Shown: positions 14,934-42,531 of the stretch, piece after piece | Numbering within the stretch: position 1 is the first letter of the stretch | Layout of the letters: each line of letters begins with the position of its first letter | Translations under genes and position numbers: made by a program | The notes under the pieces: generated by a model | Databases searched by the model: none | Seen by the model: the letters and a program-made list of their open reading frames with translations, nothing else | Told to the model about the DNA's origin: nothing | NCBI GenBank assembly: GCA_049510295.1 | Contig: JBEKZC010000016.1 | Span: 1,316 to 65,315 of the forward strand | Direction of reading: 5' to 3' | DNA length: 64,000 nt | Source of the DNA: Verrucomicrobiota bacterium | GTDB taxonomy: Bacteria; Verrucomicrobiota; Verrucomicrobiia; Limisphaerales; UBA11358

Positions 14934-14960
14934 GTTTGTTCTTAATTAGTTCCCAACAAA

Positions 14961-14979
14961 CCTCCAGTAGTCCGGTCGG
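14961..14979 (-). promoter_or_regulatory. leader motif copy a (CYGACCGG-N3-ACYGGARG)
   Basis: The plus strand reads 'cctccagtagtccggtcgg', 27 nt upstream of the ATG at 14933. Confidence 0.45.
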
Positions 14980-15126
14980 TGTTGCTCGATTATTGTTGTT
15001 TTGTTCTTTGATCCAGTTCGTCTGGTGCTCAATCTTAATTCAAGTGGAGCGCCCACAGGTTTCAGCTAACACGCCGAAACAAATTTCAATTCTTGCGAAC
15101 TCGCCGCCACTGTTTCGCATTGGTTT

Positions 15127-17132: not shown

Positions 17133-18863
17133 TCAGCTTCGCTTCAACGAACGCAATGCCAGCACCAGTGCATCCACCTCTTCGCGGGTGTTATAGAGTG
17201 CGAGTGACGGACGGACGCTGCTCTCCAGCCCGAAATGGCGGATGGCCGGTTGCGCGCAGTGATGCCCAGCGCGAACGGCGATGCCGTTTTTGTCCAGATG
17301 CCGGGCGATGCTTTCGTTGGGCACGCCGGGAATGACGAACGACAGCACGCTCGCCTTGCTGGCCGCCGTGCCGATGGGGCGCAGACCGGGAATCGTCGCC
17401 AGCGCCTGCGTCGCGTATTCGAGCAGCGCGTGTTCGTAGGCCGCAATCGCAGGAATGCCAACCTTGAACAAATAATCAATCGCCGCGCCCAGGCCCACGA
17501 CCCCGGCGATGTCGGGCGTTCCGGCCTCAAACTTTTCCGGCGCGTGTTGATAGTCGGTTTTCTCAAAGCGCACGTCCTTGATCATGTGGCCGCCGCCCTG
17601 CCACGGCGGCATCGCTTCGAGCAGCGGCGCTTTGCCGTAGAGCGCGCCGATGCCGGTCGGGCCAAAAATCTTGTGCGCCGAAAAAACAAAGAAGTCGGCG
17701 TCCAGCGCCGTGACGTTGACCGGGAGGTGCGGCGTGGATTGCGCGCCGTCCACGAGCACGGGCACGCCGCGCGCGTGGGCGAGGGCGATGATTTGCTCGA
17801 CAGGATTGATAGTGCCGAGCGAATTGGACACATGCGCGACGGAAACAAACTTGGTCTTGTCACCGAGCAGCTTGACGTATTCGTCCAGAATCAATTCGCC
17901 TCGGTCATTGATGGGAATCACGCGGAGCGTTGCGCCTACTTGTTCGGCGAGCAACTGCCACGGCACGATGTTCGCGTGATGCTCCAGTTCGGTGACGATG
18001 ATTTCGTCGCCGGCGCCGATATTTTTACGCCCGTAACTTTGCGCGACGAGGTTGATGGCCTCGGTGGTGCCGCGAACGAAAATGATTTCCTTGGCATCCG
18101 CCGCGCCGAGAAATTTGCGGACTTTTTCGCGACCAGCTTCAAATAATTCGGTCGAGCGCGCGGCCAGCGCGTGAGCGGCGCGATGGATGTTCGAATTGTC
18201 GCGGCTGTAGAATTGCGAGGTAGCATCAATCACCGCCTGCGGCTTGTGCGTCGTTGCCGCGTTGTCGAGCCAGATGAGCGGCTTGCCGTTGACGAGCTGA
18301 TGCAGCGCTGGAAAATCGCGGCGCACGCCATCGAGATCGAACTTCGGGACTGGTGCGGCGGTTTTCGGATAAGATTGGCAGGCGAGCGGCGACTTACCGG
18401 AAGCATTGCCGCCGCGCAAAAAATAATACTCCGGCGTGGCCAGCGATTCGGCGTCGGGAAAACCGAGCAGTGGATTTCCGTTCGCCGTTTTTGTGTCCGG
18501 CTGGTTGCCCTGCGGGCGGTAAGCGCCATTGCAACGCGGTTCGCCGAACGCGTAAGAGTCGCCCGAATCCGGCGCGTGACCGCCCGACTGAGTTTTCTCC
18601 GGTTCGGATAATTTTGGCGCGGCGGGCTGCGCACTCGGATGCACTGGCGGCACGGCGGAACTGGCATCCGCTGCGGAAATACCGGGTGGCTTGGCAACAT
18701 CGGGAATCTCCGATGGCACGGTGGGTATCGCGGCTGGCCGTGCGTCACGGCTGAATTCCGAAAATGCCTCGGCCACGAGTTTGGCGACAAGATCACTGTG
18801 CGCCAGTTCGCCCGCCGCCGGCTCGGCTGCCGGCACAGCCGCGCTATTTGGCGCTGTAGTCAT
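17133..18863 (-). CDS. cysteine desulfurase (SufS/CsdA class) with a long disordered N-terminal encapsulin cargo-loading domain
   Basis: 576 aa. The first roughly 190 aa are Pro/Ala-rich and include 'LVAKLVAEAFSEFS'; compare the LARLANEFFS motif of family 2A cargo. The C-terminal part is an aminotransferase class V domain with 'FSAHKIFGPTGIG' and 'RAGHHCAQP'. Confidence 0.85.
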   Translation of the reverse strand: MTTAPNSAAVPAAEPAAGELAHSDLVAKLVAEAFSEFSRDARPAAIPTVPSEIPDVAKPPGISAADASSAVPPVHPSAQPAAPKLSEPEKTQSGGHAPDSGDSYAFGEPRCNGAYRPQGNQPDTKTANGNPLLGFPDAESLATPEYYFLRGGNASGKSPLACQSYPKTAAPVPKFDLDGVRRDFPALHQLVNGKPLIWLDNAATTHKPQAVIDATSQFYSRDNSNIHRAAHALAARSTELFEAGREKVRKFLGAADAKEIIFVRGTTEAINLVAQSYGRKNIGAGDEIIVTELEHHANIVPWQLLAEQVGATLRVIPINDRGELILDEYVKLLGDKTKFVSVAHVSNSLGTINPVEQIIALAHARGVPVLVDGAQSTPHLPVNVTALDADFFVFSAHKIFGPTGIGALYGKAPLLEAMPPWQGGGHMIKDVRFEKTDYQHAPEKFEAGTPDIAGVVGLGAAIDYLFKVGIPAIAAYEHALLEYATQALATIPGLRPIGTAASKASVLSFVIPGVPNESIARHLDKNGIAVRAGHHCAQPAIRHFGLESSVRPSLALYNTREEVDALVLALRSLKRS

Positions 18864-19800
18864 AGTAATTGTTCACCACGACATTGTCCAAACGGGCGAT
18901 GGCGTCGGTAGTCAGCACGCTGGCCGAGAAGTAGCGCGTGACGAGATGCGACGCGATGGAATGTTCGTTCGTGCCCATGTAGCGAACGGACAAGCCGGGT
19001 TCTACTTCGCCGGTGACGCCGGTTTTTTGGAGGCCGACCACGCCCTGTTCCGCTTCGCCGACGCGCAGGAGCAGAACACTCGTGGAATTGTTTTTCACGT
19101 CCAGCTTGTTGCTCGGAATCAACGGCACACCGCGCCAGGTGATGAAGGGCGTTCCGAAAAGATGAACCGTTGGCGGCGGCACACCCCGGCGCGTGGCTTC
19201 GCGCCCAAAAGCAGCAATCGCTTTGGGGTGCGCGAGGAAGAAGGCGGGCTTTTTCCAGACCAGAGCGAGGAGTTCATCGAGGTCGTCCGGCGTCGGCGAA
19301 CCTTTGCGAGTCTTGATCGTTTGCGCCGCGTCCACTTCCTTGAGCAGACCGAAGTCGGGATTGTTGATGAGCTCCCACTCCTCGCGTTCCTTGACGGATT
19401 CGACGGTAAGCCGAATCTGTTCGCGGAGCTGGTCAATCTTGTTGCTGTAAAGATCGGTCACGCGCGTGTGCGTGCGGAGGACCGTCTGGATGGTGCTCAA
19501 ATGATACTCACGCGGGTCCTGGTCGTAATCCACGAAGGTCGTCGGCAATTTCGGTTCGCCGCCGTCCACGGTGAGCAGGTCCACCTTGGCTTCGCCGAAT
19601 TCATTCGCGGGTTTTCCCTTCGCCGCCTTGGCGACGCGGTTGACGCGATAAACGCCGCCATCCACGTCCACCCACGGCAGCAATTTGTGCAGCCAGCGCG
19701 GAGTGATTTCCGTGTATTGCGGAACGGTGACAGTTGCGGTGGCGAGGTTGCGGGCCGCGGCGGCACTCAAGCTCAAGTGGATTTCGTTTTCTTTGCTCAT
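18844..19800 (-). CDS. family 2A encapsulin shell protein (SrpI-like, HK97 fold)
   Basis: 318 aa. 'ITPRWLHKLLPWVDVDGGVYRVNRV', 'PREYHLSTIQTVLRTHTRVTDLY', 'AFFLAHPKAIAAFGREATRRGVPPPTVHLFGTPFITWRGVPLIPS' and 'EQGVVGL' match what I remember of the Synechococcus SrpI sequence. No cNMP-binding domain is present, so it is family 2A. It overlaps the cargo gene by 20 nt. Confidence 0.88.
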   Translation of the reverse strand: MSKENEIHLSLSAAAARNLATATVTVPQYTEITPRWLHKLLPWVDVDGGVYRVNRVAKAAKGKPANEFGEAKVDLLTVDGGEPKLPTTFVDYDQDPREYHLSTIQTVLRTHTRVTDLYSNKIDQLREQIRLTVESVKEREEWELINNPDFGLLKEVDAAQTIKTRKGSPTPDDLDELLALVWKKPAFFLAHPKAIAAFGREATRRGVPPPTVHLFGTPFITWRGVPLIPSNKLDVKNNSTSVLLLRVGEAEQGVVGLQKTGVTGEVEPGLSVRYMGTNEHSIASHLVTRYFSASVLTTDAIARLDNVVVNNYYDYSAK

Positions 19801-19902
19801 AATTTAGTTTGGTTGTTGGTGAATGGAAAAATCAACGTGGATTGTGTTACGGAAAAATGGGGGGGCCGCTTCGCGCGTGAAAACGCCGAAGCGACAGACC
19901 GG

Positions 19903-19965
19903 CTAAAACTTCCGGTCGCGCCGGAATCTGGACACAATTCGACATGAATACACTTTCAGTTTCAT
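19903..19965 (-). CDS. candidate leader peptide uORF MKLKVYSCRIVSRFRRDRKF
   Basis: The ATG lies exactly 5 nt after the GGAGG of motif copy b. Translated by hand: 20 codons plus TAG. It has Lys4 and a single Cys at codon 8. Confidence 0.35.
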   Translation of the reverse strand: MKLKVYSCRIVSRFRRDRKF

Positions 19966-19970
19966 GGGAG

Positions 19971-19989
19971 CCTCCAGTTGACCGGTCAG
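19971..19989 (-). promoter_or_regulatory. leader motif copy b
   Basis: The plus strand reads 'cctccagttgaccggtcag'. Confidence 0.45.
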
Positions 19990-20139
19990 CGCCGTGAGAT
20001 TTCGATCAGGTTTCAGGGTGGCGTTGTCGCCCAAACTAGATATTAGGCGGAGTTTCCAACGTCAGCAAATGTTTTTTTGAAAATTAGAATCGGCGGGGGC
20101 AGTCTGTTTTTGCCTGACTCCCCCAATCGCGTGGATTAA

Positions 20140-20415
20140 ATGTTTCGTGTGCAGTTCGCCAAACAACCGCAGCAAATCATTCTCTACACCCGGCCCATGT
20201 GTAGTTGGTGCATGGACGCCAAGGCATGGCTGGATGAGCAAGGTTTGAAATACACCGTGGCCGATGTCGGCACAGACCTCGCCGCCCGGCAAAAGGCCGT
20301 TGCATTGAGCGGCCAGACGCTCGTGCCGGTGATCGAAGTGGATGGTCTCGTGCTCGGCGACTTCGACGTGGAACAGTTTGAAGTGTTTCTGAAAAAGCAC
20401 GGTTATCTGGCTTGA
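20140..20415 (+). CDS. glutaredoxin-family protein
   Basis: 91 aa with the CxxC motif 'CSWC' in 'ILYTRPMCSWCMDAKAWL' and 'TLVPVIEVDG'. Confidence 0.75.
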   Translation: MFRVQFAKQPQQIILYTRPMCSWCMDAKAWLDEQGLKYTVADVGTDLAARQKAVALSGQTLVPVIEVDGLVLGDFDVEQFEVFLKKHGYLA

Positions 20416-21419: not shown

Positions 21420-21441
21420 AGTGAATATGCTTTCCATTCAC
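21391..21441 (-). CDS. candidate leader peptide uORF (GTG) VNGKHIHCEHHELLWN
   Basis: The GTG lies 5 nt after the GGAAG of motif copy c. It has Lys4 and Cys8. The Cys codon (21420..21418) overlaps the GTG start (21419..21417) of the downstream enzyme gene. Confidence 0.3.
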   Translation of the reverse strand: MNGKHIHCEHHELLWN

Positions 21442-23657: not shown

Positions 23658-24668
23658 TCAAATGATCCAGTCATGCGCGGCTTCTGCTTTCCGCGCGGAC
23701 TTGTCGCGGATGACAAGCTGTTTCTCCTCATAAACTACGAGCGAATCCGGCGGGACACTGTGCATCAGAAACACATTCGCGCCGATGGTCGAGTTGGCGC
23801 CGATGACCGTTTCGCCGCCGAGAATGGTCGAGTTTGGATAAATCGTCACGTTGTCCTCCACGTTCGGATGGCGCTTGCCGCCCTTGACGATGTGGCCAGC
23901 CTCGTCCTTGGCAAAGCTCCGCGCGCCGAGTGTCACACCGTGGTAAAGTTTCACGCGCTTGCCGATTTTGCACGTCTCGCCAATGACCACGCCGGTGCCG
24001 TGGTCTATGAAAAAATGTGAGCCAATTTGCGCGCCCGGATGAATGTCAATACCCGTGCGACTGTGCGCCCATTCCGTCATCATGCGCGGAATGATCGGTG
24101 CGCCGGCGCGATACAAAATATGCGCAAGCCGCTGGATGGTTATGGCCTCGATGAACGGATATGACAGAATGATTTCCTCGCTGTAAAGTGCGGCTGGATC
24201 ACCTTCGTAAGCAGCCTCAATGTCGCTACGCAATAATTCGCGCACCTCGGACAACGAGTCGCAAAAATGCCGGACGATCGGTGGCGTGCGTCCGGTGGGC
24301 TTCTTCGGGTCGCCGATGCGGACGCTTTTGCGCACCTGGTCTTCTAGCTGGATACCCACGGCGGAAAGGCGCTCGCGCGTCAACTCCGCCAGCGTGCCGT
24401 GATGCACCGCGTCGTCGTCGTGGAACCCGGGGAACAGTAATTGCAGCAGCCCTTCACAAATCTGCCCGACGGCGCGCGTGGACGGCATGTTGTGCGCGTC
24501 ACGATTGTTCAGTCCCCCGACCAAGGCGTAAGACGCGATCAACTTCGGCACAAACTGGTCGTAAAAGGTCTCTTCGAAGCCGGGACGAGCGGACAAGTGC
24601 GCGACAGCAGCATCCGCCGAATGGGCCGGGGGCGTGGCGTGGTTCAAATATTCGAGTGCAGGTTTCAT
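23658..24668 (-). CDS. cysE: serine O-acetyltransferase (long form)
   Basis: The hexapeptide-repeat region is 'IHPGAQIGSHFFIDHGTGVVIGETCKIGKRVKLYHGVTLG...IGANSTIGANV'. Confidence 0.85.
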   Translation of the reverse strand: MKPALEYLNHATPPAHSADAAVAHLSARPGFEETFYDQFVPKLIASYALVGGLNNRDAHNMPSTRAVGQICEGLLQLLFPGFHDDDAVHHGTLAELTRERLSAVGIQLEDQVRKSVRIGDPKKPTGRTPPIVRHFCDSLSEVRELLRSDIEAAYEGDPAALYSEEIILSYPFIEAITIQRLAHILYRAGAPIIPRMMTEWAHSRTGIDIHPGAQIGSHFFIDHGTGVVIGETCKIGKRVKLYHGVTLGARSFAKDEAGHIVKGGKRHPNVEDNVTIYPNSTILGGETVIGANSTIGANVFLMHSVPPDSLVVYEEKQLVIRDKSARKAEAAHDWII

Positions 24669-24773
24669 TCGATCTCGTCTTTTTGTATCAAATCAAATAA
24701 ATGTTCCGGGCTTCCGGCGCGCACACGGTATTCAACGCCGGAAACCCGTTTGCCTCGGAGGTTGGGCAAAGCG

Positions 24774-24956
24774 TCAGGCAAATAATTCGTCCTCCAAGGT
24801 GAATCCCCAGTCCAGCCGCCGCAAACGCTCGCGAATTTTGCGCCGCTCGTAACGGTGTTCCACAGCCTTGGCGGCATTGGGGCGCAACCCGCTGGTGCGC
24901 TTGGCAACCGGACTGGTGGCATTGTGGTCGGACTTGGCATTGGTCTGTGTTTTCAT
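24774..24956 (-). CDS. small basic hypothetical protein
   Basis: 60 aa from the internal ATG (MKTQTNAKSD...). It is the first cistron before cysE. I recognise no family. Confidence 0.4.
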   Translation of the reverse strand: MKTQTNAKSDHNATSPVAKRTSGLRPNAAKAVEHRYERRKIRERLRRLDWGFTLEDELFA

Positions 24957-25325
24957 ATTTTCAAAAAATGGTTGCGGATTTTGCAACGCGAGCGGTGGAG
25001 AAGATCCGCCGCCCGCGTCGCGTCTCCTTTGGTTTGAAAACCGGTTGGAAATGAATATTTCAGTCGCATCTTACCTGTGTTTTTCCGATTTTGCCCAAAG
25101 GCCGCTGAAATGAGTGCCGGGTTCCAACCCGGCGGGTTTTGGTCTTTGAGGTGTTTGCACCTCCCCGTGAAGGGGCGGAAAAGTCAGAAATGACCGCGTT
25201 GAGGAGCGGTAAAAGCGCTTCTTGGCCGGTTGAGAAATTGCGGCTGTCGCCCGATCCGGTTTCAGAAGCTGGCAGGTTCCAATACCTGTGTTGAAAATCA
25301 AAACGGCACTGCAATAGCAAGCGCA

Positions 25326-25403
25326 TCAATCCTGCTTGAGCCGCAGGCGAAACGCGTTGAACTGGATTCTGTAAAACAGACATATTAAATGTTTTGTTCT
25401 CAT
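25326..25403 (-). CDS. candidate leader peptide uORF MRTKHLICLFYRIQFNAFRLRLKQD
   Basis: The ATG lies 5 nt after the GGAAG of motif copy d. It has Lys4 and a single Cys at codon 8. About 370 nt of hairpin-rich leader follow before the next ATG. Confidence 0.3.
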   Translation of the reverse strand: MRTKHLICLFYRIQFNAFRLRLKQD

Positions 25404-25408
25404 GGGAA

Positions 25409-25427
25409 CTTCCAGTTGTCCGGTCAG
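25409..25427 (-). promoter_or_regulatory. leader motif copy d
   Basis: The plus strand reads 'cttccagttgtccggtcag'. Confidence 0.45.
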
Positions 25428-25462
25428 TTTCTAGCTTTTATTTAGTGCCAGGCATTTATTTT

Positions 25463-36485: not shown

Positions 36486-36667
36486 AGGTTCACAATTTTT
36501 CGGTTTGGTTGTTTCAGTAAAAAAACGTCCGCGTATGCGGGAGACAGCGCCGCCTGCCCAAGCAGTCGGCGGATTCCGGCAATGTCACTTTGACGACCGG
36601 AATCGGGTGATGTTTTGCCCACTGTCTCTTTCGCAATCACACGGTTTCGTTTGTTCTTTTTGAAGAA

Positions 36668-36686
36668 CCTCCGGTGAACCGGTCAG
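36668..36686 (-). promoter_or_regulatory. leader motif copy e
   Basis: The plus strand reads 'cctccggtgaaccggtcag', about 180 nt upstream of the ATG at 36485. Confidence 0.45.
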
Positions 36687-36794
36687 CCTTCGTAAATTTT
36701 CTAAATGTTGAGCCTCTCCCGCAGTGGAGTCGGCAAATGGTAAATGCGGTGGACCACAAGCTGCTCGCGTCGCTGTGCATTCTAATCATGGATT

Positions 36795-37622
36795 TTACAG
36801 GTTTGGCGCGTAGGCGATGAATTTGCGGTATTCGACTAAAATGGTCTGCAACGCCGTCACAAACGCTTGTTCCTTCACATAGGTCAGCGGCGCTTTGGGC
36901 GTCTCGAGGATGATCTCGAACGGACGCGGACGGACTTTTGGCGGGGCGCTCAATATGCCGTCGCAGGTGTCGTAAATGACGCCGTTGCACGCCCGAAAAC
37001 CGTCAATGACCGGACGCTCATCGCGCGCAAGCACTTTTTCAACGGCCTGTAGCGCGGGCTCTATTAGATGTTTGGTCAATGTCGCGCCGTGAGCGAACCC
37101 GTAAAAGCCGCCACTCGTTTCATCGGTGTGCAGTGAAATGATGCCGTGAAACGAATGGGAAATGAGTTCGGCCTGCAGCAGCCGGACTTCCGGCTGGTCC
37201 GAGTTTTTCCAAAACTCGCGATTCAAATCTTTTCCGCCGCGCGAAAATCTTGTGCCGTCTTCATAACCGGTTGGATTGCATATCGGATAAAACGACAGGC
37301 AGTAACCGGCGGCCAGTTCCGGCCGGGCTTCGAGCAGCTTGACGAACTGGACAATGGCGCGCGCGCCTTCCGGTTCGTCTCCGTGAATCGCGGCGAAGAT
37401 GCCAATGCGAATCGGTGCGTCGCCGCCTTTGGGGCCGACGAACAGGAAGCGCGGCAATTCGTAAGTTTCGCCGGCATTTTTGAACTTCGCTCCGTGGTTG
37501 ACGACGAGGTTCGGCGAATGCTCCGCAATTTTTCCAAGTGGCACAAGCACACTGGCGGTGGAGCGCCAGCGCACGCGCGGGGTTGGCGGGGCAATTTCAA
37601 ATTGGGAATCGGCGATGGTCAT
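36795..37622 (-). CDS. M14 / succinylglutamate desuccinylase-aspartoacylase family metallopeptidase
   Basis: 'IGIFAAIHGDEPEG' and 'NPTGYEDGTRFSRGGKDLNREF'. The start is at the ATG at 37622, just after the sbp stop. Confidence 0.75.
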   Translation of the reverse strand: MTIADSQFEIAPPTPRVRWRSTASVLVPLGKIAEHSPNLVVNHGAKFKNAGETYELPRFLFVGPKGGDAPIRIGIFAAIHGDEPEGARAIVQFVKLLEARPELAAGYCLSFYPICNPTGYEDGTRFSRGGKDLNREFWKNSDQPEVRLLQAELISHSFHGIISLHTDETSGGFYGFAHGATLTKHLIEPALQAVEKVLARDERPVIDGFRACNGVIYDTCDGILSAPPKVRPRPFEIILETPKAPLTYVKEQAFVTALQTILVEYRKFIAYAPNL

Positions 37623-37629
37623 GGCTCGT

Positions 37630-38622
37630 TTATAATGCTTGGAATATCTGGTCAAAGACGCCGCCGTCGGCGAAATGGGTTTTCTGCGCTTTCTGCCAGC
37701 CACCCGCGATTTCATCCACCGTGAACAACTCCAGCGGTTTATATCGCGTGGAATATCTCGCAAGGATGGTTTGGTTTTGGGGACGGAAAAAATGTTGGGC
37801 AGCCAGTTCCTGTCCGGCATCGCTGTATAGATATTCGAGATAGGCGCGCGAAACGGCCTCGGTATGATGCCGTCTCACGTTGCGATCCACCCAGGTGACG
37901 GGGTTTTCTGCAAGAATGCTCACGGGCGGTAGCACAACAACCAGTCCGTCGTCGGGAAATTGTTTCTGAACCAGCGCGGCCTCGTTTTCAAAAGTCAGCA
38001 GCACATCCCCGATTCCGCGATCGGCAAAAGTCGTCGTCGCGCCGCGTCCGCCGGTGTCGAGCACAGGCACGTTGGCGAAGAGTTTCGCCACAAACGCGCG
38101 CGCCTGCTTCTCGTCACCGGCGGATTTCTTCAGCGCATATCCCCACGCCGCCAAATAACTGTAGCGACCATTGCCGGAGGTTTTCGGATTCGGAATGACA
38201 ACCGATACATCAGAACGGACAAGGTCGTCCCAATTTCTGATGTTCTTCGGATTGCCTTTGCGAACCACAAAGACAATTGTCGAAGTGTAAGGCACGCTGT
38301 TGTTCGGCAAACGCGATGACCAATTTGCCGGAATTAAATCAACCGAATGTAAAATATCAATGTCCGGCGGCTGGTTCATCGTTACCACGTCCGCTTCGAG
38401 TCCATTGACCACGGATTGCGCCTGCTTGCTTGAACCGCCATGAGATTGATTGATCGTCACGGCTTCCCCGGTTTTCTCCTTCCAATACGCCGCGAAAGCC
38501 TGATTGTAATCCTGATAGAATTCCCGCGTAACGTCGTAGGAAACGTTCAGCAGTTTGGTTTCCTTCGCGCTTGCGGAAATGGCAAGGGTCGAAACCAGCA
38601 GAATTTTCAGAAAGGTTTTCAC
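37630..38622 (-). CDS. sbp: sulfate/thiosulfate-binding periplasmic protein
   Basis: 'LLNVSYDVTREFYQDYNQAFAAYWKEKTGEAVTINQSHGGSSKQAQSVVNGLEADVVT' closely parallels E. coli Sbp. Confidence 0.9.
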   Translation of the reverse strand: MKTFLKILLVSTLAISASAKETKLLNVSYDVTREFYQDYNQAFAAYWKEKTGEAVTINQSHGGSSKQAQSVVNGLEADVVTMNQPPDIDILHSVDLIPANWSSRLPNNSVPYTSTIVFVVRKGNPKNIRNWDDLVRSDVSVVIPNPKTSGNGRYSYLAAWGYALKKSAGDEKQARAFVAKLFANVPVLDTGGRGATTTFADRGIGDVLLTFENEAALVQKQFPDDGLVVVLPPVSILAENPVTWVDRNVRRHHTEAVSRAYLEYLYSDAGQELAAQHFFRPQNQTILARYSTRYKPLELFTVDEIAGGWQKAQKTHFADGGVFDQIFQAL

Positions 38623-40240: not shown

Positions 40241-40258
40241 GATTTTTTTGTTTTTTTG

Positions 40259-40277
40259 CCTCCAGTGCTCCGGTCGG
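40259..40277 (-). promoter_or_regulatory. leader motif copy g
   Basis: The plus strand reads 'cctccagtgctccggtcgg', 2 nt after the stop of the YezD-like gene. It is in tandem with copy f across an A-rich spacer. Confidence 0.45.
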
Positions 40278-40279
40278 CG

Positions 40280-40468
40280 CTATTCTTTTTGAGCTGGCGG
40301 CTTCTCCAGCCGCACGCGTTCGGTCTTTTCAATTTGAATCACACGCGAATCATGAATGACAATTTCCACCACGCCGTAACGCAATGAACCAACGTGTTGA
40401 ATAACCAATTCCAGCCACTTCAGATCGTCGCTGCTATTCGTTTTTGTCTCTTTGATCCCTTCACTCAT
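40280..40468 (-). CDS. YezD-like (DUF2292) small protein
   Basis: 62 aa. 'GSLRYGVVEIVIHDSRVIQIEKTERVR' matches the YezD pattern seen in sulfur-metabolism operons. Confidence 0.6.
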   Translation of the reverse strand: MSEGIKETKTNSSDDLKWLELVIQHVGSLRYGVVEIVIHDSRVIQIEKTERVRLEKPPAQKE

Positions 40469-40694: not shown

Positions 40695-41156
40695 TTAGAT
40701 GCCTTCCCCGCCGATGAAGCCGGCCGAAACCTCGCGTTTGGAAACCGGCGCGCCCTTTGCAACCTCGGCCAGAGTCGCCTTGTCCATTAGTCCGGCCACA
40801 TAATTTCGCGCGTCGAGGAAAACGCGGCGGAACCGGCAGACCGGCTCTTGTGAACAACGCTGGTAGCCAGTCAGCGAAACGCAGTCAATCGGCGCTAAAA
40901 TGCCGTCAAAATGCCTCACCACCTCGCCCATTGTAATTTGGGCGGGACTTTTGGCGAGTATGTAACCGCCGCGGATTCCGGCGGCGCTGTTCACCCAGCC
41001 CTGCGCCTTGAGGTCCAGCATAATCTGCTCCAGAAAGCGCTTGGGAACATCATTCCGCCGGGCAAGCTCCCGAATGGGTATCGGCGCACCTCCAAAATGA
41101 TCCACGAGCGTGAACAAGGAGCGCAGCGCATAATCAGTCTTCTTTGAAACTCGCAT
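40695..41156 (-). CDS. Rrf2-family transcriptional regulator (CymR/IscR-like)
   Basis: 'MRVSKKTDYALRSLFTLV...PIPIRELARRNDVPKRFLEQIMLDLKAQGWV.S..G.RGGY.LA' and a Cys cluster (C..C.....C). The start is at the internal ATG at 41156. Confidence 0.85.
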   Translation of the reverse strand: MRVSKKTDYALRSLFTLVDHFGGAPIPIRELARRNDVPKRFLEQIMLDLKAQGWVNSAAGIRGGYILAKSPAQITMGEVVRHFDGILAPIDCVSLTGYQRCSQEPVCRFRRVFLDARNYVAGLMDKATLAEVAKGAPVSKREVSAGFIGGEGI

Positions 41157-41162
41157 ATCAAT

Positions 41163-41185
41163 ATACACGATAAAATAAGTCATAT
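41163..41185. promoter_or_regulatory. weaker operator-like palindrome upstream of the Rrf2 gene
   Basis: 'ACGAT-aaaataa-GTCAT'. Confidence 0.25.
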
Positions 41186-41367
41186 TTAAGTCAACAGATA
41201 TTACGGATTTTTCGGAGCGGAGTTGACTTAACTGATGATCCAATAAACTTCGTCGAGTAAGATGAAACCAAAGCCCGTCGCCACCGCACAAGTGGTCTGC
41301 CCCAGTTGAGATTTGGACAGTTTGAAAGGCCTGAATAACCTTATGCAAATGAACCCAGATCCACCCG

Positions 41368-42531
41368 TCAAGCGCGGGCGTTGTCAAGTTCAGCTTCGAT
41401 TTCCGCCACAGTCGGCAGGCTGCCTTTCAAATTCCTGGGCAGGGATTCAACCAGTTTGGTCTGCCATTGGGCGACACCGATGGGCTTTTTCAAATCGCGC
41501 AGCGCATACTCAACGGTCAGATGGTCACGTTCCTTGCACAGCAGCAGGCCGATGGACGGTCTGTCATCGGCATGGCGCAACTGGTCGTCCACCGCTGAAA
41601 GGTAAAAATTCATCTTGCCCGCAAATTCCGGCTCGAAAGCCTTCATTTTCAGATCAATCACGACATAGCAGCGCAGTTGCAGGTGGTAAAACAGCAGGTC
41701 GAGATAATAATCCTGGCCGCTGATCTCCATGTGATATTGCCGGCCGACAAACGCGAAGCCGACGCCGAGTTCGAGCAGGAATTTCTGGATGTGGTCAAGC
41801 AAACCCTGTTCGAGGTCGCGCTCGTGCGCGTCGCTGCGGATCGTGAGGAAATCGAAATTGTATGGGTCTTTGAGCGTTTGCTCAGCGAGGTCGGACTGCG
41901 GGGGCGGCAGGGTGCGCTGGAAATTGGTAACGGCTTTGCCTTCGCGTTTGTGCAGTTGCGTCTCAATGTGGTGCGTGAGCACCGCGCGTGACCAGCCATG
42001 TTCGATGACTTTGTGAGCATACCAGAGCCGGATGAGCGGGGTTTTCAATTTGGCCAGCAAAACCAAATTATGTCCCCAAGGGATTTCCGCCACAGGTTGC
42101 GGCAAATTTGATCCAGCCAATTCTCCAACAAGCTGTGGGAGAATCTTCGAGGTGGATTCTCCAACAGGCTGTTGGAGTTTTTGAAGTTCCTTGGTCCAAG
42201 CGAGATAAAAACTCCGCATATACCAGACGTTTTGCGGCGAGAAACCCGCCGTGCCGGGGAATTCCTTTTGCAGGTCTTCCGCCAACCGCTCCACCACCTG
42301 CTTGCCGTAGCCTTTGGTCTTTTGCGCCTCGACAATGATTCTACCGATGTCCCAATAAAGCAGAATCAACTCGCGGTTGATGGAAACCACCGCGCGAAGT
42401 TGCGCCGCGCGGACCCGCGCCTTGAGGTCGGCGAGCAAATTGGCATAACCGACAGGAAGCGCGGCGGATGGTTTGCCATCCTGTCCGCTGATCTTTGCCA
42501 AACCTGTGGCTGTTGTTTTTCGTTTCGTCAT
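41368..42531 (-). CDS. DUF1016 / YhcG-family PD-(D/E)xK nuclease-domain protein
   Basis: 387 aa with 'INRELILLYWDIGRII' and 'YLDLLFYHLQLRCYVVIDLKMKAFEPEFAGKMNFYLSAVDD'. Confidence 0.85.
   Translation of the reverse strand: MTKRKTTATGLAKISGQDGKPSAALPVGYANLLADLKARVRAAQLRAVVSINRELILLYWDIGRIIVEAQKTKGYGKQVVERLAEDLQKEFPGTAGFSPQNVWYMRSFYLAWTKELQKLQQPVGESTSKILPQLVGELAGSNLPQPVAEIPWGHNLVLLAKLKTPLIRLWYAHKVIEHGWSRAVLTHHIETQLHKREGKAVTNFQRTLPPPQSDLAEQTLKDPYNFDFLTIRSDAHERDLEQGLLDHIQKFLLELGVGFAFVGRQYHMEISGQDYYLDLLFYHLQLRCYVVIDLKMKAFEPEFAGKMNFYLSAVDDQLRHADDRPSIGLLLCKERDHLTVEYALRDLKKPIGVAQWQTKLVESLPRNLKGSLPTVAEIEAELDNARA

Follow-up and report, generated by a model that had tools for sequence, protein, structure and literature searches.

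A Small RNA Hairpin Ahead of Sulfur Genes and a Family 2A Encapsulin Operon, Probably the Sensor End of a cis-Acting Switch

RESULTS

The Leader of an Encapsulin-Cysteine Desulfurase Operon

The DNA studied here, to which we refer as the window, is a stretch of 64,000 nucleotides from a member of the Verrucomicrobiota. Its minus strand carries a SrpI-like shell gene followed by a gene for a cysteine desulfurase with a long N-terminal extension (the Aminotran_5 domain comprises residues 197-566 of 576), an arrangement that identifies a family 2A encapsulin/cysteine desulfurase operon. The elements of the leader and the genes of the operon are as follows.

20040..20068, minus strand: promoter-like element read from the letters (-35 TTGCTG 20068-20063, 17-nt spacer, -10 TAATAT 20045-20040)
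20020..20031, minus strand: P0, a hairpin (GGCG-ACAA-CGCC) close to the 5' end of the leader RNA, predicted by RNAalifold, 98% paired
19964..19996, minus strand: core RNA motif (covariance-model match, 39.3 bits)
19975-19971, 19970-19966 and 19965-19963, minus strand: GGAGG, CTCCC and ATG (ATG1)
19903..19965, minus strand: uORF1, ATG 19965, 20 codons, TAG 19905-19903, translation MKLKVYSCRIVSRFRRDRKF
19938..19970, minus strand: predicted helix P3, CUC plus CAUGAA (19970-19961) with UUCAUG plus GAA (19948-19938)
19847..19945, minus strand: ATG2 (19945-19943) and uORF2, 32 codons, stop TAA 19849-19847, crossing hairpin T
19910..19926, minus strand: predicted hairpin P5 inside uORF1 (UUCCGG-CGCGA-CCGGAA), 79% paired, three pairs changing on both sides
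19867..19893, minus strand: hairpin T, 10-bp and bulged, followed by U runs at 19857-19853 and 19831-19827
18844..19800, minus strand: family 2A encapsulin (SrpI-like) gene, first of the regulated operon (Pfam SrpI-like, 3.7e-110)
18863-17133, minus strand: cysteine desulfurase gene (Pfam Aminotran_5, 1.4e-144)
17118-16591, minus strand: rhodanese/YgaP gene of the same operon (Pfam Rhodanese)
16473-15451, minus strand: Zn-ADH-like gene of the same operon (Pfam ADH)

The promoter-like element occupies the position held by TTGACA-N16-TAGCAT in related leaders; a scan for consensus promoters made no call in the window and, among the relatives, returned a promoter only for one leader (L143). The leader is transcribed, since it is represented in four metatranscriptomes. 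Metatranscriptome contigs begin at 20004-20022, and the RNA contigs that match exactly (two runs) stop at 19818-19826, past the second U run.

The original prediction had described a Shine-Dalgarno (SD)-led upstream ORF in this leader, with a lysine codon at position 4 and its sole cysteine codon at position 8. Its descriptive elements are all found in the DNA. On the minus strand, ATG 19965 follows GGAGG at a distance of 5 nt; the frames that open at GTG 21441 and ATG 25403 next to two other copies of the motif likewise read Lys at codon 4 and Cys at codon 8; the hairpin at 19893-19867 is present and forms part of the minimum-free-energy fold of the window; and the encapsulin start codon (ATG 19800) is devoid of an SD sequence. 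The latter property is normal for this DNA, as an SD-like element is found at only about three of the 28 long ORFs in the window. The interpretation built on these elements fared unevenly: a regulatory leader, and a motif common to genes of the sulfur-starvation type, are both upheld by our data, while a translated uORF that senses Lys-4 and Cys-8 codons is not.

Seven Copies of the Motif Precede Sulfur Genes in the Window

The motif occurs seven times in the window, each time ahead of sulfur genes. A 20-nt pattern derived from it found five matches where none were expected, and a covariance model recovered six matches scoring 25.9-40.5 bits together with one variant that has a 5-nt loop; the next best hit scored about 10 bits. 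Apart from the copy in the encapsulin leader, the relevant sites are:

14954..14986, minus strand: motif copy before a DUF3034 outer-membrane protein gene (14933-13914) and cysK (13729-12749; Pfam), 28.4 bits
21440..21472, minus strand: motif copy directly before a cysK-like PALP gene (ATG 21437), 37.0 bits
25402..25434, minus strand: motif copy before a conserved stretch of about 700 nt, then cysE (24668-23658) and sulfite reductase, 40.5 bits
36661..36693, minus strand: motif copy about 180 nt before a gene for a secreted 367-aa protein (36485-35382), 35.2 bits
40221..40284, minus strand: tandem motif copies at 40284-40252 and 40240-40221 (the latter with the 5-nt loop), 25.9 and 10.3 bits
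40280..40468, minus strand: yezD/oscA-like small ORF, DUF2292, 62 aa (Pfam DUF2292, 6.6e-15)

In three of these copies (14954-14986, 36661-36693 and 40252-40284) no start codon follows the GGAGG sequence, a fact that the original prediction had missed. It had likewise overlooked that the cysK-like gene truly starts at ATG 21437, in a different frame from the supposed uORF at 21441. An ortholog of this gene (L209) retains the N-terminus MES.F.VS, and the sequence GGAAG is present at an ideal SD distance from the real start codon, so that formation of the hairpin could lower rather than raise translation at this particular site. Downstream of the copy at 25402-25434 we considered the reading frame ORF107 (25383-25060) as the regulated gene and discarded it: tblastx conservation is the same in all six frames, and this frame is therefore probably non-coding. 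The tandem pair is positioned between the yezD/oscA-like ORF and a Porin_O_P gene (40197-38650), with sbp (38622-37630; Pfam assignments) next in order. At the first tandem copy, the 5' flank overlaps with the stop codon of the small ORF. Against the NCBIfam OscA model this ORF scores 37.9 bits, which is under the curated cut-off.

The Core Is a Small Hairpin That Acts at the RNA Level

In the encapsulin leader, the core motif consists of a helix P1 (19993-19989 paired with 19971-19967), an internal loop in which UGA (19988-19986) lies opposite AG (19973-19972), and a helix P2 formed by CCGG (19985-19982) and CUGG (19977-19974) that is closed by the tetraloop UCAA. The general forms are YGA opposite AR for the internal loop and CCGG:CYGG for P2. 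What looks like an SD sequence, GGAGG, is composed of the 3' end of P2, the AG of the loop and the first base of P1.

Over 67 instances, P1 and P2 are 86% paired. The P1 pair 7:27 is represented by G-U (27 instances), A-U (19), G-C (16) and U-A (2), and a P2 pair by G-C (52), G-U (12) and A-U (3); in the Chthoniobacterales, P2 takes the compensatory form CCGU:ACGG. The structure is hence conserved with covariation, as is typical of riboswitches, in a set whose cross-phylum members were partly gathered with a fixed sequence pattern, which makes P2 and the 3' strand look more conserved than they are. When the whole 237-nt leader was folded with RNAalifold, P0, the core hairpin and one further hairpin were recovered; no double-compensatory pairs were present in this fold because the sequences are too similar. 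P0 shows G-U variants within the fold set and reads AGCG:CGCU in one leader (L020). The window's own minimum-free-energy fold lacks P2 and contains a CUGGA:UCCAG pairing and a long-range helix in its place; we dropped these two elements, as several relatives break both of them without compensation.

Every clear copy of the motif (at least 25 bits) resides on the strand of its gene. Taken together with the G-U pairs that are allowed in its stems, this indicates that the motif acts at the RNA level. The alternative, a DNA operator for a transcription factor such as the Rrf2/CymR-like regulator encoded at 41387-40695, has the attraction that this regulatory gene adjoins the sulfate-uptake cluster and that CCGG-N4-CCGG is palindromic as DNA. 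However, all seven copies in the window and all 35 copies in Binatia are found on the strand of the gene; G-U pairs (CCGG:CUGG) and compensatory A-U/U-A exchanges preserve RNA pairing and not DNA symmetry; and the motif is located downstream of the promoter within the transcribed RNA, where it abuts start codons and forms the arms of terminators. We therefore consider an operator function exceedingly improbable.

A search of the window against Rfam 15 returned no match at the gathering score, and for the region 19700-20250 none at E-values up to 10. Nor did any Rfam 15 family, including SAM-I to VI, SAM/SAH, T-box, guanidine-II and NMT1, match the motif at 16 loci from various phyla. No description of the motif was found in the full-text literature on riboswitches, sulfur genes, encapsulins and YezD/oscA. 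Judged by strand polarity and loop sizes, the internal loop presumably does not represent a K-turn, a loop E or a UAA/GAN motif.

The Conservation Pattern of uORF1 Is Not That of a Coding Region

The original prediction holds that uORF1 is translated and that pausing of the ribosome at its sole Cys codon (and at Lys-4) under conditions of Cys-tRNA scarcity remodels the leader in such a way that hairpin T no longer terminates or blocks. We assembled 85 distinct orthologous encapsulin leaders to assess the conservation of uORF1, and some of its properties are indeed in keeping with such a mechanism. A short ORF with a canonical GGAGG-5 nt-ATG arrangement is present in the leader of the window; ATG1 is kept in 66 of the 85 leaders and a length of 19-21 codons in 43; codon 8 specifies Cys in 55 of the 63 ORFs that are long enough to reach it; the variants TGT to TGC and CGA to CGG/CGC are synonymous; and the stop codon, situated about 10 nt before hairpin T, belongs to a column (UAR) that is conserved above its flanks. 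The conservation of ATG1, of the UAR column and of the ORF length leaves room for some translation of uORF1, which may therefore take place.

The alignment as a whole speaks against a conserved coding function. No ATG, GTG or TTG is found at the start position in 15 of the 85 leaders; the frame is closed by a stop codon within eight codons in 10 leaders and extends beyond 25 codons in another 10; and the orthologs differ by indels of -5, +2 and 1 nt, which shift the frame in several of them, while the nucleotides as such are conserved. Early stops include TAA or TGA at codon 7, with the nucleotides of the presumed Cys codon conserved nonetheless. Variability by codon position (154/156/146) displays neither a 3-nt periodicity nor an excess at third positions, codon 3 varies at its first and second positions and is fixed at the third, and no periodicity of substitutions was detected in any frame of the leader alignment. 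The nucleotide motif thus persists where the uORF is lost or shifted, the very outcome that the original prediction had named as its refutation. The frame, K4 and C8 are not generally kept.

Other leaders tell the same story. With one Cys codon among 20, uORF1 contains no run of codons for the amino acid to be sensed; the supposed uORF at cysK comprises only four codons in the ortholog L209, and that at 25403 is frame-shifted in the ortholog L002; three of the seven copies in the window lack a start codon; and in Binatia, Firmicutes and Chloroflexi the same motif exists without any uORF. Of 18 leaders of sulfate-binding-protein (Sbp) genes in which an ATG follows the motif in the same way, just one has Cys at codon 8. 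In these leaders, the distance from ATG1 to ATG2 or to the gene start ranges from 16 to 28 nt, and Cys arises only where ATG2 is read out of frame. When one adds that the start codon of uORF1 is buried in a helix (P3) that is 95% paired among relatives, and that SD sequences are rarely used in this genome, sensing of cysteine by this peptide appears very improbable. uORF1 is most readily understood as a side product of a conserved switch formed by an RNA hairpin.

The Motif Accompanies Sulfur Genes in at Least Eight Phyla

A first broad scan with a DNA pattern was swamped by chance matches in GC-rich coding DNA, a problem that a stricter pattern cured. The strict 24-nt pattern yielded 96 stretches, of which we estimate few to have arisen by chance. 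The motif was found in Verrucomicrobiota, Binatia, Nitrospira, Acidobacteria, Omnitrophota, Gammaproteobacteria, Chloroflexi, Lachnospiraceae and Treponema, and hence in at least eight phyla. Across these phyla it mostly precedes genes for OprO/P-type porins and sulfate-binding proteins and usually lies just after yezD/oscA (DUF2292). The 102 distinct downstream ORFs include 36 of the Porin_O_P family and 16 Sbp-type binding proteins; cysK, cysE/sir, the encapsulin-cysteine desulfurase operon, an SsuA-like gene and, at one Lachnospiraceae locus, metK are further targets. In a collection free of selection for the motif, namely loci fetched by porin homology alone, it was present about 21 nt before the start codon in 35 of approximately 40 cases. 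Encapsulin genes with the motif ahead of them occur in Limisphaerales, Chthoniobacterales and Akkermansiaceae. This broad occurrence before the genes of one pathway is a hallmark of riboswitches. Where tandem copies exist, they are spaced 37-68 nt apart.

The 3' Half of the Motif Participates in Varied Expression Platforms

Minimum-free-energy folds of individual leaders place the 3' half of the motif in a second, lineage-specific structure. In two of them (L234 and L181) it constitutes the 5' arm of a terminator, and in four others (L216, L201, L164 and L186) it is part of a helix that covers the SD sequence, the AUG and the first codons. A 9-bp helix in Binatia (GGAAGUUCC:GGGGCUUCC) likewise uses the 3' half and masks the SD sequence, and canonical terminators built from it are present in Treponema (L376) and in the leader L386. 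The terminators recorded (L234, L177, L181, L222, L376 and L386) belong to a distribution by lineage in which Lachnospiraceae, Chloroflexi and Treponema employ terminators, Binatia an anti-SD helix, and Nitrospira and Verrucomicrobiota an anti-start helix. Varied platforms sharing one strand with a conserved element are what one would expect of a riboswitch.

The anti-start helix of the encapsulin leader is P3, which pairs ATG1 with ATG2 and carries the A-rich sequence GAAAG in its loop. It is contained in the window's own fold and is 95% paired in 51 relatives; its outer part covaries in four leaders (L031, L037, L050 and L055), and within the Limisphaerales, where it is too conserved to covary, not one P3 pair is altered on both of its sides. 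Nitrospira and Sbp leaders show this start-to-start pairing as well. In the encapsulin leader, P1 and P3 have only 3 nt in common, so that their competition is weaker here than in the Sbp leaders. Further downstream, hairpin T is compensatory in relatives, with seven of nine pairs changing on both sides; the consensus terminator scan did not call it a canonical intrinsic terminator, and no terminator was called in the window.

These features raise the possibility that translation of the leader matters and the encoded peptide does not. Either GGAGG-ATG1 would serve, when the hairpin is open, as a decoy start from which out-of-frame translation or 30S occupancy blocks ATG2, or regulated translation of uORF2 across hairpin T would avert termination or be coupled to the SD-less encapsulin start, in a manner resembling pyrBI. 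The columns of ATG2 are near invariant in the leader alignment, and ATG1 and the stop column are conserved above their flanks; where the leader is short, sbp and the porin gene actually start at ATG2, and the mini-ORFs of Nitrospira end at or overlap the real start. The contigs of the leader RNA that stop at 19818-19826 would also be in line with this proposal. Of 75 leaders, 70 keep uORF2 open over 28 codons or more, and this frame usually ends 0-50 nt before the encapsulin ATG, the divergent long leaders L025, L031, L032 and L037 included. Yet an open third frame is almost as common (59 of 75), open frames may merely reflect a low A content, and we draw no conclusion as to selection on the length of uORF2. 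Moreover, uORF2 is reduced to four codons in L055 and is absent in L049 and L057, periodicity is missing from every frame, no canonical terminator was recognized, and neither conformer leaves ATG1 accessible (P2/P1 takes up its SD, and P3 the ATG). On balance, we regard control through translation of this kind as a minority possibility.

YezD/OscA and the Nature of the Sensor

A yezD-like ORF ends no more than 400 nt upstream of 70 of the 105 motif copies in other phyla and, conversely, the motif is found within about 300 nt downstream of 112 of 128 yezD ends, in a sample biased toward motif loci. Linkage of a small-protein gene to the RNA site is thus found, as would be expected of a protein-dependent switch. 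Since five motif sites of the window (all except the tandem pair) have no adjacent yezD gene, the protein would need to act in trans at these sites.

YezD/OscA (DUF2292) is a protein that we take to be an orphan of the sulfur-starvation response, and we know of no RNA-binding activity for it. An AlphaFold2 model shows a helix and a beta-hairpin (pLDDT 78.5). YezD has no sequence relative in the PDB, and a Foldseek search with the model found no PDB neighbor with an E-value below 1; tblastn against plasmids gave no match, and no description of its function was found in the full-text literature.

DISCUSSION

Our data suggest that the region upstream of the encapsulin operon is probably the sensor end of a cis-acting RNA switch and not a leader peptide that senses cysteine. 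More tentatively, the hairpin may serve as the aptamer, or as the core recognized by a protein, in an undescribed and phylogenetically widespread switch that turns genes ON when sulfur is limiting; it would either sense a metabolite directly (e.g., O-acetylserine or another starvation signal) or be bound by YezD/OscA. With equal reserve, the targets of this switch would comprise anion porins of the outer membrane, sulfate-binding proteins and cysteine synthesis, joined in Verrucomicrobiota by the encapsulated cysteine desulfurase. As to the sensor itself, we give direct binding of a metabolite close to an even chance, consider the co-located YezD/OscA or another protein a possible candidate, and hold anything else to be unlikely. 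For an aptamer that binds a metabolite, the conserved core would be very small.

The 3' strand of the motif (GG-AR-GYUC[C]) would be common to the hairpin and to a competing helix that hides a downstream expression signal, and from these shared strands only we infer that the folded hairpin is the ON conformer. A sensor that stabilizes the hairpin under sulfur limitation would then turn the genes on. In Verrucomicrobiota, P3 would pair ATG2 (19945), at which the regulated frame starts, with the nucleotides that immediately follow the hairpin on its 3' side. Because CAUG is self-complementary, this anti-start sequence itself reads ATG (ATG1 at 19965, 5 nt past GGAGG), and uORF1 would result from reading the anti-start element in triplets: the AAA of codon 4 (the presumed K4) would correspond to an A-rich loop or a standby tract ahead of ATG2, and codon 8 (UGU, the presumed C8) to the A-UG-U of ATG2 read out of frame, since a distance of 20 nt separates the two ATGs. 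The 32-codon frame that begins at ATG2 traverses hairpin T and stops 46 nt short of the encapsulin start, and the encapsulin switch may work via translation from ATG2; alternatively, a freed GUCGAR segment may pair with the 5' arm of hairpin T.

In Firmicutes, sulfur genes are subject to control by SAM and T-box RNAs, while sulfate uptake and cysteine synthesis in other bacteria are thought to be governed mainly by transcription factors of the CysB, CymR and Rrf2 types. If our reading is true, it adds an RNA layer to the sulfur-starvation response in the form of a short switch common to at least eight phyla, offers the first regulatory handle on family 2A encapsulin operons, and assigns a testable function to the orphan DUF2292 family. 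It also carries a caution for the annotation of leader peptides: as the complement of CAUG is CAUG, an anti-start-codon helix can by itself generate an SD-ATG-ORF arrangement with seemingly conserved residues.

Leader-peptide attenuators (trpL, hisL, pheL; pyrBI) resemble the encapsulin leader in possessing a short ORF with an SD sequence, alternative hairpins and a stop codon just before a conserved hairpin. They differ from it in that the leader studied here offers a single regulatory codon instead of a run, an ORF that is not conserved and no canonical terminator, and in that the motif is also present in leaders devoid of an ORF.

Protein-dependent RNA switches such as those of the HutP-controlled hut and the PyrR-controlled pyr operons, in which the regulator gene precedes the RNA target, share with the motif the order of small ORF (yezD/oscA), hairpin(s) and regulated genes, which holds for 70 of 105 copies. 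The fixed stem sequence would suit recognition by a protein. YezD/OscA differs from HutP and PyrR in having no RNA-binding activity known to us and no significant PDB neighbor.

Riboswitches with a shared strand, such as the adenine ON switches of pbuE/ydhL and the small, tandem guanidine-II (mini-ykkC) elements, offer a close parallel. Like the motif, they are structured elements in 5' leaders and intercistronic regions of coherent sets of genes in many phyla, they act through terminators in some lineages and through helices that sequester the SD sequence or the start codon in others, the 3' strand of their closing helix is common to a competing helix, and tandem copies occur. Guanidine-II has conserved loops, whereas the core of the motif is built from a 4-bp stem of fixed sequence and a 3x2 internal loop; the motif further differs from riboswitches in that one small-protein gene (yezD/oscA) usually precedes it, that it has no Rfam match and that its ligand is a candidate only. 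The SAM riboswitches (the S-box and others) are comparable as RNA regulators of sulfate uptake, of cysteine synthesis and of metK. The motif matches none of the SAM classes of Rfam 15 in sequence or structure, and while these classes are OFF switches, its anatomy points to an ON switch.

The Encapsulin Leader and Its Upstream Reading Frame

The leader of the encapsulin operon is located on the minus strand, in a 339-nt gap between a glutaredoxin-like gene and the divergently oriented gene for a family 2A encapsulin; genes for a cysteine desulfurase, a rhodanese/YgaP protein and a Zn-ADH-like protein follow in this order.

Features of the encapsulin leader region
20140-20415, plus strand: glutaredoxin-like gene, divergent neighbor of the leader
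19964-19996, minus strand: copy of a small hairpin motif
19975-19971, minus strand: GGAGG, directly followed by CTCCC
19965-19903, minus strand: uORF1, starting at ATG1 (19965), translation MKLKVYSCRIVSRFRRDRKF, TAG stop at 19905-19903
19945-19847, minus strand: uORF2, a 32-codon frame opened by ATG2 (19945)
19893-19867, minus strand: bulged hairpin T, 3' of the uORF1 stop
19800, minus strand: ATG of the SrpI-like family 2A encapsulin gene, the first gene of the operon

The original prediction viewed uORF1 as a plausible Cys-codon-dependent switch of this operon. The GGAGG-ATG arrangement, the reading frame and hairpin T are all present as described, and the Lys codon 4 and Cys codon 8 recur in both other frames to which uORF1 had been likened. 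The encapsulin start does indeed lack a Shine-Dalgarno (SD) sequence, and most genes here share this trait: of 28 long ORFs in the window, an SD-like element precedes only about 3. A- or CA-rich tracts precede gene starts window-wide, for instance ACCAACAACCAAACUAAAUU in front of the encapsulin ATG, a tract that is kept in relatives. The cysteine desulfurase gene (17133-18863, minus strand) begins within the last part of the encapsulin gene, with a 20-nt overlap; ahead of its Aminotran_5 domain, the enzyme carries a Pro/Ala/Ser-rich N-terminal extension of about 195 residues that fits an encapsulin cargo-loading domain.

The source organism is a Limisphaerales/Pedosphaera-like bacterium within the Verrucomicrobiota. 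Orthologous leaders were retrieved through similarity of the encapsulin protein, a selection unbiased as to the leader itself; 80 genome and 80 metagenome loci yielded 85 distinct leaders. Conserved blocks (promoter, the 5' leader hairpin P0, the motif, ATG...TTCATGTCGAGTTGTGTCCAGATTCCGG, a hairpin, and the CA-rich tract before the encapsulin ATG) are separated in them by variable spacers.

State of uORF1 in the 85 distinct leaders
Start kept, 19-21 codons: 43/85
No ATG/GTG/TTG in the start column, mostly CTG: 15/85
Start kept, stop within 8 codons: 10/85
Start kept, more than 25 codons: 10/85
Other lengths: 7/85

Early stops include ATG-TGA and TAA/TGA at codon 7, with the "Cys" nucleotides unchanged, and indels of -5, +2 and 1 nt occur in the uORF1 region. 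Summed variability at codon positions 1/2/3 amounts to 154/156/146 (55 collinear leaders), and at codon 3 the first two positions vary while the third is fixed. The frame is thus lost or shifted while the nucleotides persist, the very outcome that the original prediction had named as its refutation; the idea of a sulfur-linked regulatory leader stands, that of a Cys-codon sensor does not. Since 66 of the 85 leaders keep ATG1 and the UAR stop column varies less than the columns around it, uORF1 may occasionally be translated. Six of the records used (L001, L002, L011, L015, L022, L024), whose encapsulin loci are 87-100% identical to the window, bear the title "uncultured Bifidobacteriaceae bacterium", apparently a labeling error in the source MAG records.

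The Motif Is a Small RNA Hairpin

We derived the architecture of the motif from 67 instances aligned in register, the cross-phylum ones having been selected partly by sequence pattern.

Elements of the motif
P1: 3 or more bp whose sequence varies, with an invariant closing C-G pair
Internal loop: 5'-YGA-3' facing 5'-AR-3'
P2: CCGG:CYGG pairing
Terminal loop: a variable tetraloop

The P1 pair 7:27 is G-U in 27 instances, A-U in 19, G-C in 16 and U-A in 2, while the variable P2 pair is G-C in 52, G-U in 12 and A-U in 3. In register, 86% of the cells form pairs, versus 24-50% with the partner slid, and Chthoniobacterales encapsulin leaders carry a compensatory CCGU:ACGG. The "GGAGG" consists of the last two P2 bases, the AR of the loop and the first base of the P1 3' strand. 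Exact-match metatranscriptome contigs extend from 19742, 19797, 19818 or 19826 to 20004-20022. The tolerance of G-U pairs, the strict co-orientation with genes and the position within transcribed RNA argue for an RNA element and against a DNA operator.

A 20-nt pattern derived from three copies has five matches in the window, where none is expected. A covariance model finds six copies (25.9-40.5 bits) plus one variant with a 5-nt loop; no other score in the window exceeds about 10 bits. The seven copies all have minus-strand orientation and precede sulfur-related genes.

Motif copies in the window (minus strand)
Upstream of a DUF3034 outer-membrane protein gene and cysK
Upstream of the encapsulin operon
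Upstream of a second cysK-like gene
25402-25434: upstream of a stretch leading to cysE and sulfite reductase
36661-36693: upstream of the gene for a secreted 367-aa protein
Tandem pair: downstream of a yezD-like ORF and upstream of a Porin_O_P gene, which is followed by sbp

Three of the seven copies have no start codon after GGAGG. The true cysK start (ATG 21437) is 4 nt 3' of the "uORF" start at 21441 and in a different frame; in the orthologous locus L209 the CysK N-terminus is kept, and the "uORF" reads ATG AAT GGA AAG TGA.

Between the copy at 25402-25434 and cysE lie about 700 nt (24668-25402, minus strand) with 69-73% nucleotide identity to the comparison loci L002 and L017. Their tblastx scores are equal across all six frames, and a 107-aa ORF (25383-25060) had no Pfam match; to judge from its sequence, this stretch looks more like a long non-coding leader or RNA gene than a protein gene. 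A gene for an Rrf2-family (CymR/IscR-like) regulator (40695-41387, minus strand) adjoins the yezD-porin-sbp cluster, so that the sulfur genes may combine control at the protein and RNA levels. An AstE/AspA-like deacylase gene (36795-37820, minus strand) is positioned between sbp and the copy at 36661-36693; it seems to be part of this regulon, because its ortholog in locus L207 has a motif copy directly upstream.

Distribution of the Motif

A first scan with the exact pattern, using one genome per species, returned many chance matches; clear leader matches were found in Nitrospira, Binatia ("delta proteobacterium" MAGs), Acidobacteria, Omnitrophota, Methylococcaceae and other Gammaproteobacteria, Zetaproteobacteria, Chloroflexi and Lachnospiraceae. 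A stricter 24-nt pattern gave 96 stretches, Treponema among them, of which only a few are estimated to be chance matches. Among 102 distinct ORFs downstream of the motif are those for Porin_O_P proteins (36), Sbp-type binding proteins (16) and NosD/beta-helix proteins (11); metK, cysK, an SsuA/NMT1-like binding protein and an AstE/AspA-like deacylase are examples of single cases. In an unbiased sample of loci fetched via porin homology alone, 35 of about 40 contain the motif (28-41 bits), its 3' end about 21 nt ahead of the porin gene. Binatia loci (L164, L250, L331, L344 and others) have two copies about 1 kb apart, one upstream of the gene for a 286-aa secreted NosD/beta-helix protein, the other upstream of the porin gene. 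No Rfam 15 family matches the motif and a literature search found no description of it; it appears to be a small, widespread and seemingly undescribed RNA switch, whose sensor would be a metabolite or a protein.

A Proposed Competing Helix and the Probable Origin of the uORF

Whatever the lineage, the hairpin shares its 3' half with a competing helix, of which that half is one arm.

Competing helices
Lachnospiraceae, Chloroflexi, Treponema and locus L386: GAGGUUC... serves as 5' arm in a strong terminator with a U tail
Binatia: pairing of GGAAGUUCC and GGGGCUUCC, spanning the SD
Nitrospira: pairing of CCGGAAGUUCC-CAUGUC and GACAUG-AGAAUUUCCGG, which takes in SD, AUG and first codons
Verrucomicrobial sbp leaders: GUUCC-CAUG pairs with CAUG-C-GGAAC, covering the Sbp start and first codons

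Since the folded hairpin and the sequestering helix are mutually exclusive, we infer from this anatomy that the hairpin would be the ON conformer. A factor stabilizing it would then serve as inducer, which fits genes needed in sulfur limitation.

A start in CAUG context can be sequestered only by a complement that itself reads CAUG, and this accounts for ATG1, 5 nt after GGAGG. The ATG1/ATG2 helix of the encapsulin leader, P3, joins CAUGAA (19966-19961) to UUCAUG (19948-19943), with CUC:GAR pairing outside; the overlap of P1 and P3 is weak in this leader. Across 51 relatives, P3 is 95% paired. Covariation of P3 was absent within close relatives; in leaders farther away its outer part covaries, as UUCGA:UCGAA in L031 and as CUCG(A):(U)CGAG in L037, L050 and L055. 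ATG1 would be masked in both conformers, its SD inside P1/P2 and the ATG itself inside P3.

Because ATG2 follows ATG1 by 20 nt, the ATG1 frame always has UG+N as codon 8, hence Cys when N is U or C, and the AAA of codon 4 is a piece of an A-rich loop. In 18 distinct sbp leaders, the spacing of the two ATGs is 16-28 nt and their relative frame varies. Lys codon 4 is common (11/18) because the tract is A-rich; Cys codon 8 occurs in 1/18, and Cys arises only from an out-of-frame reading of ATG2. The sbp leaders confirm that both codons are by-products of the A-rich tract and the out-of-frame ATG2. At L320:4889-4960, ATG1 and the sbp start share a frame at a distance of 24 nt; there the "uORF" would only lengthen Sbp by 8 residues, another sign that the ATG1 frame is not under selection.

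ATG2 is nearly invariant, and uORF2 runs across hairpin T. In 70 of 75 leaders it stays open over 28 codons or more, its stop usually 0-50 nt before the encapsulin ATG; as the third frame is open in 59 of the 75, this does not demonstrate selection on uORF2. Compensatory changes support hairpin T and a hairpin at 19926-19910 inside uORF1; in a consensus scan, hairpin T was not a canonical terminator. By eye, GUCGAR just 3' of ATG2 could pair with CUUCGGC in the 5' arm of hairpin T, an antiterminator-like alternative. Two metatranscriptomes contain leader-only exact-match contigs ending at 19818-19826, just past the second U run, which, being assembled contigs, weakly hint at a short leader RNA.

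Linkage to yezD

The yezD-like ORF of the window (40280-40468, minus strand; DUF2292/YezD, 62 aa) matches the NCBIfam entry for the sulfur-starvation protein OscA at a sub-threshold score; the flank of the first tandem motif copy overlaps with the stop codon of this ORF. In the cross-phylum set, where such ORFs were located by tblastn and a profile built from its matches, one ends at most 400 nt upstream of the motif in 70 of 105 copies. Conversely, the motif lies within about 300 nt downstream of 112 of 128 yezD ends, a figure biased because the loci were fetched through the motif. The linkage spans Lachnospiraceae, Treponema, Nitrospira, Binatia and Gammaproteobacteria.

We know of no function for the DUF2292 family, and YezD has no solved relative; its predicted model, a helix plus beta-hairpin (pLDDT 78.5), had no PDB neighbor at E <1. 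As the window contains a single yezD, YezD would need to act in trans on the other motif copies. The order of small ORF, hairpin(s) and transport genes is like that of hutP and other RNA switches in which the regulator comes first, the likeness lying in gene order.
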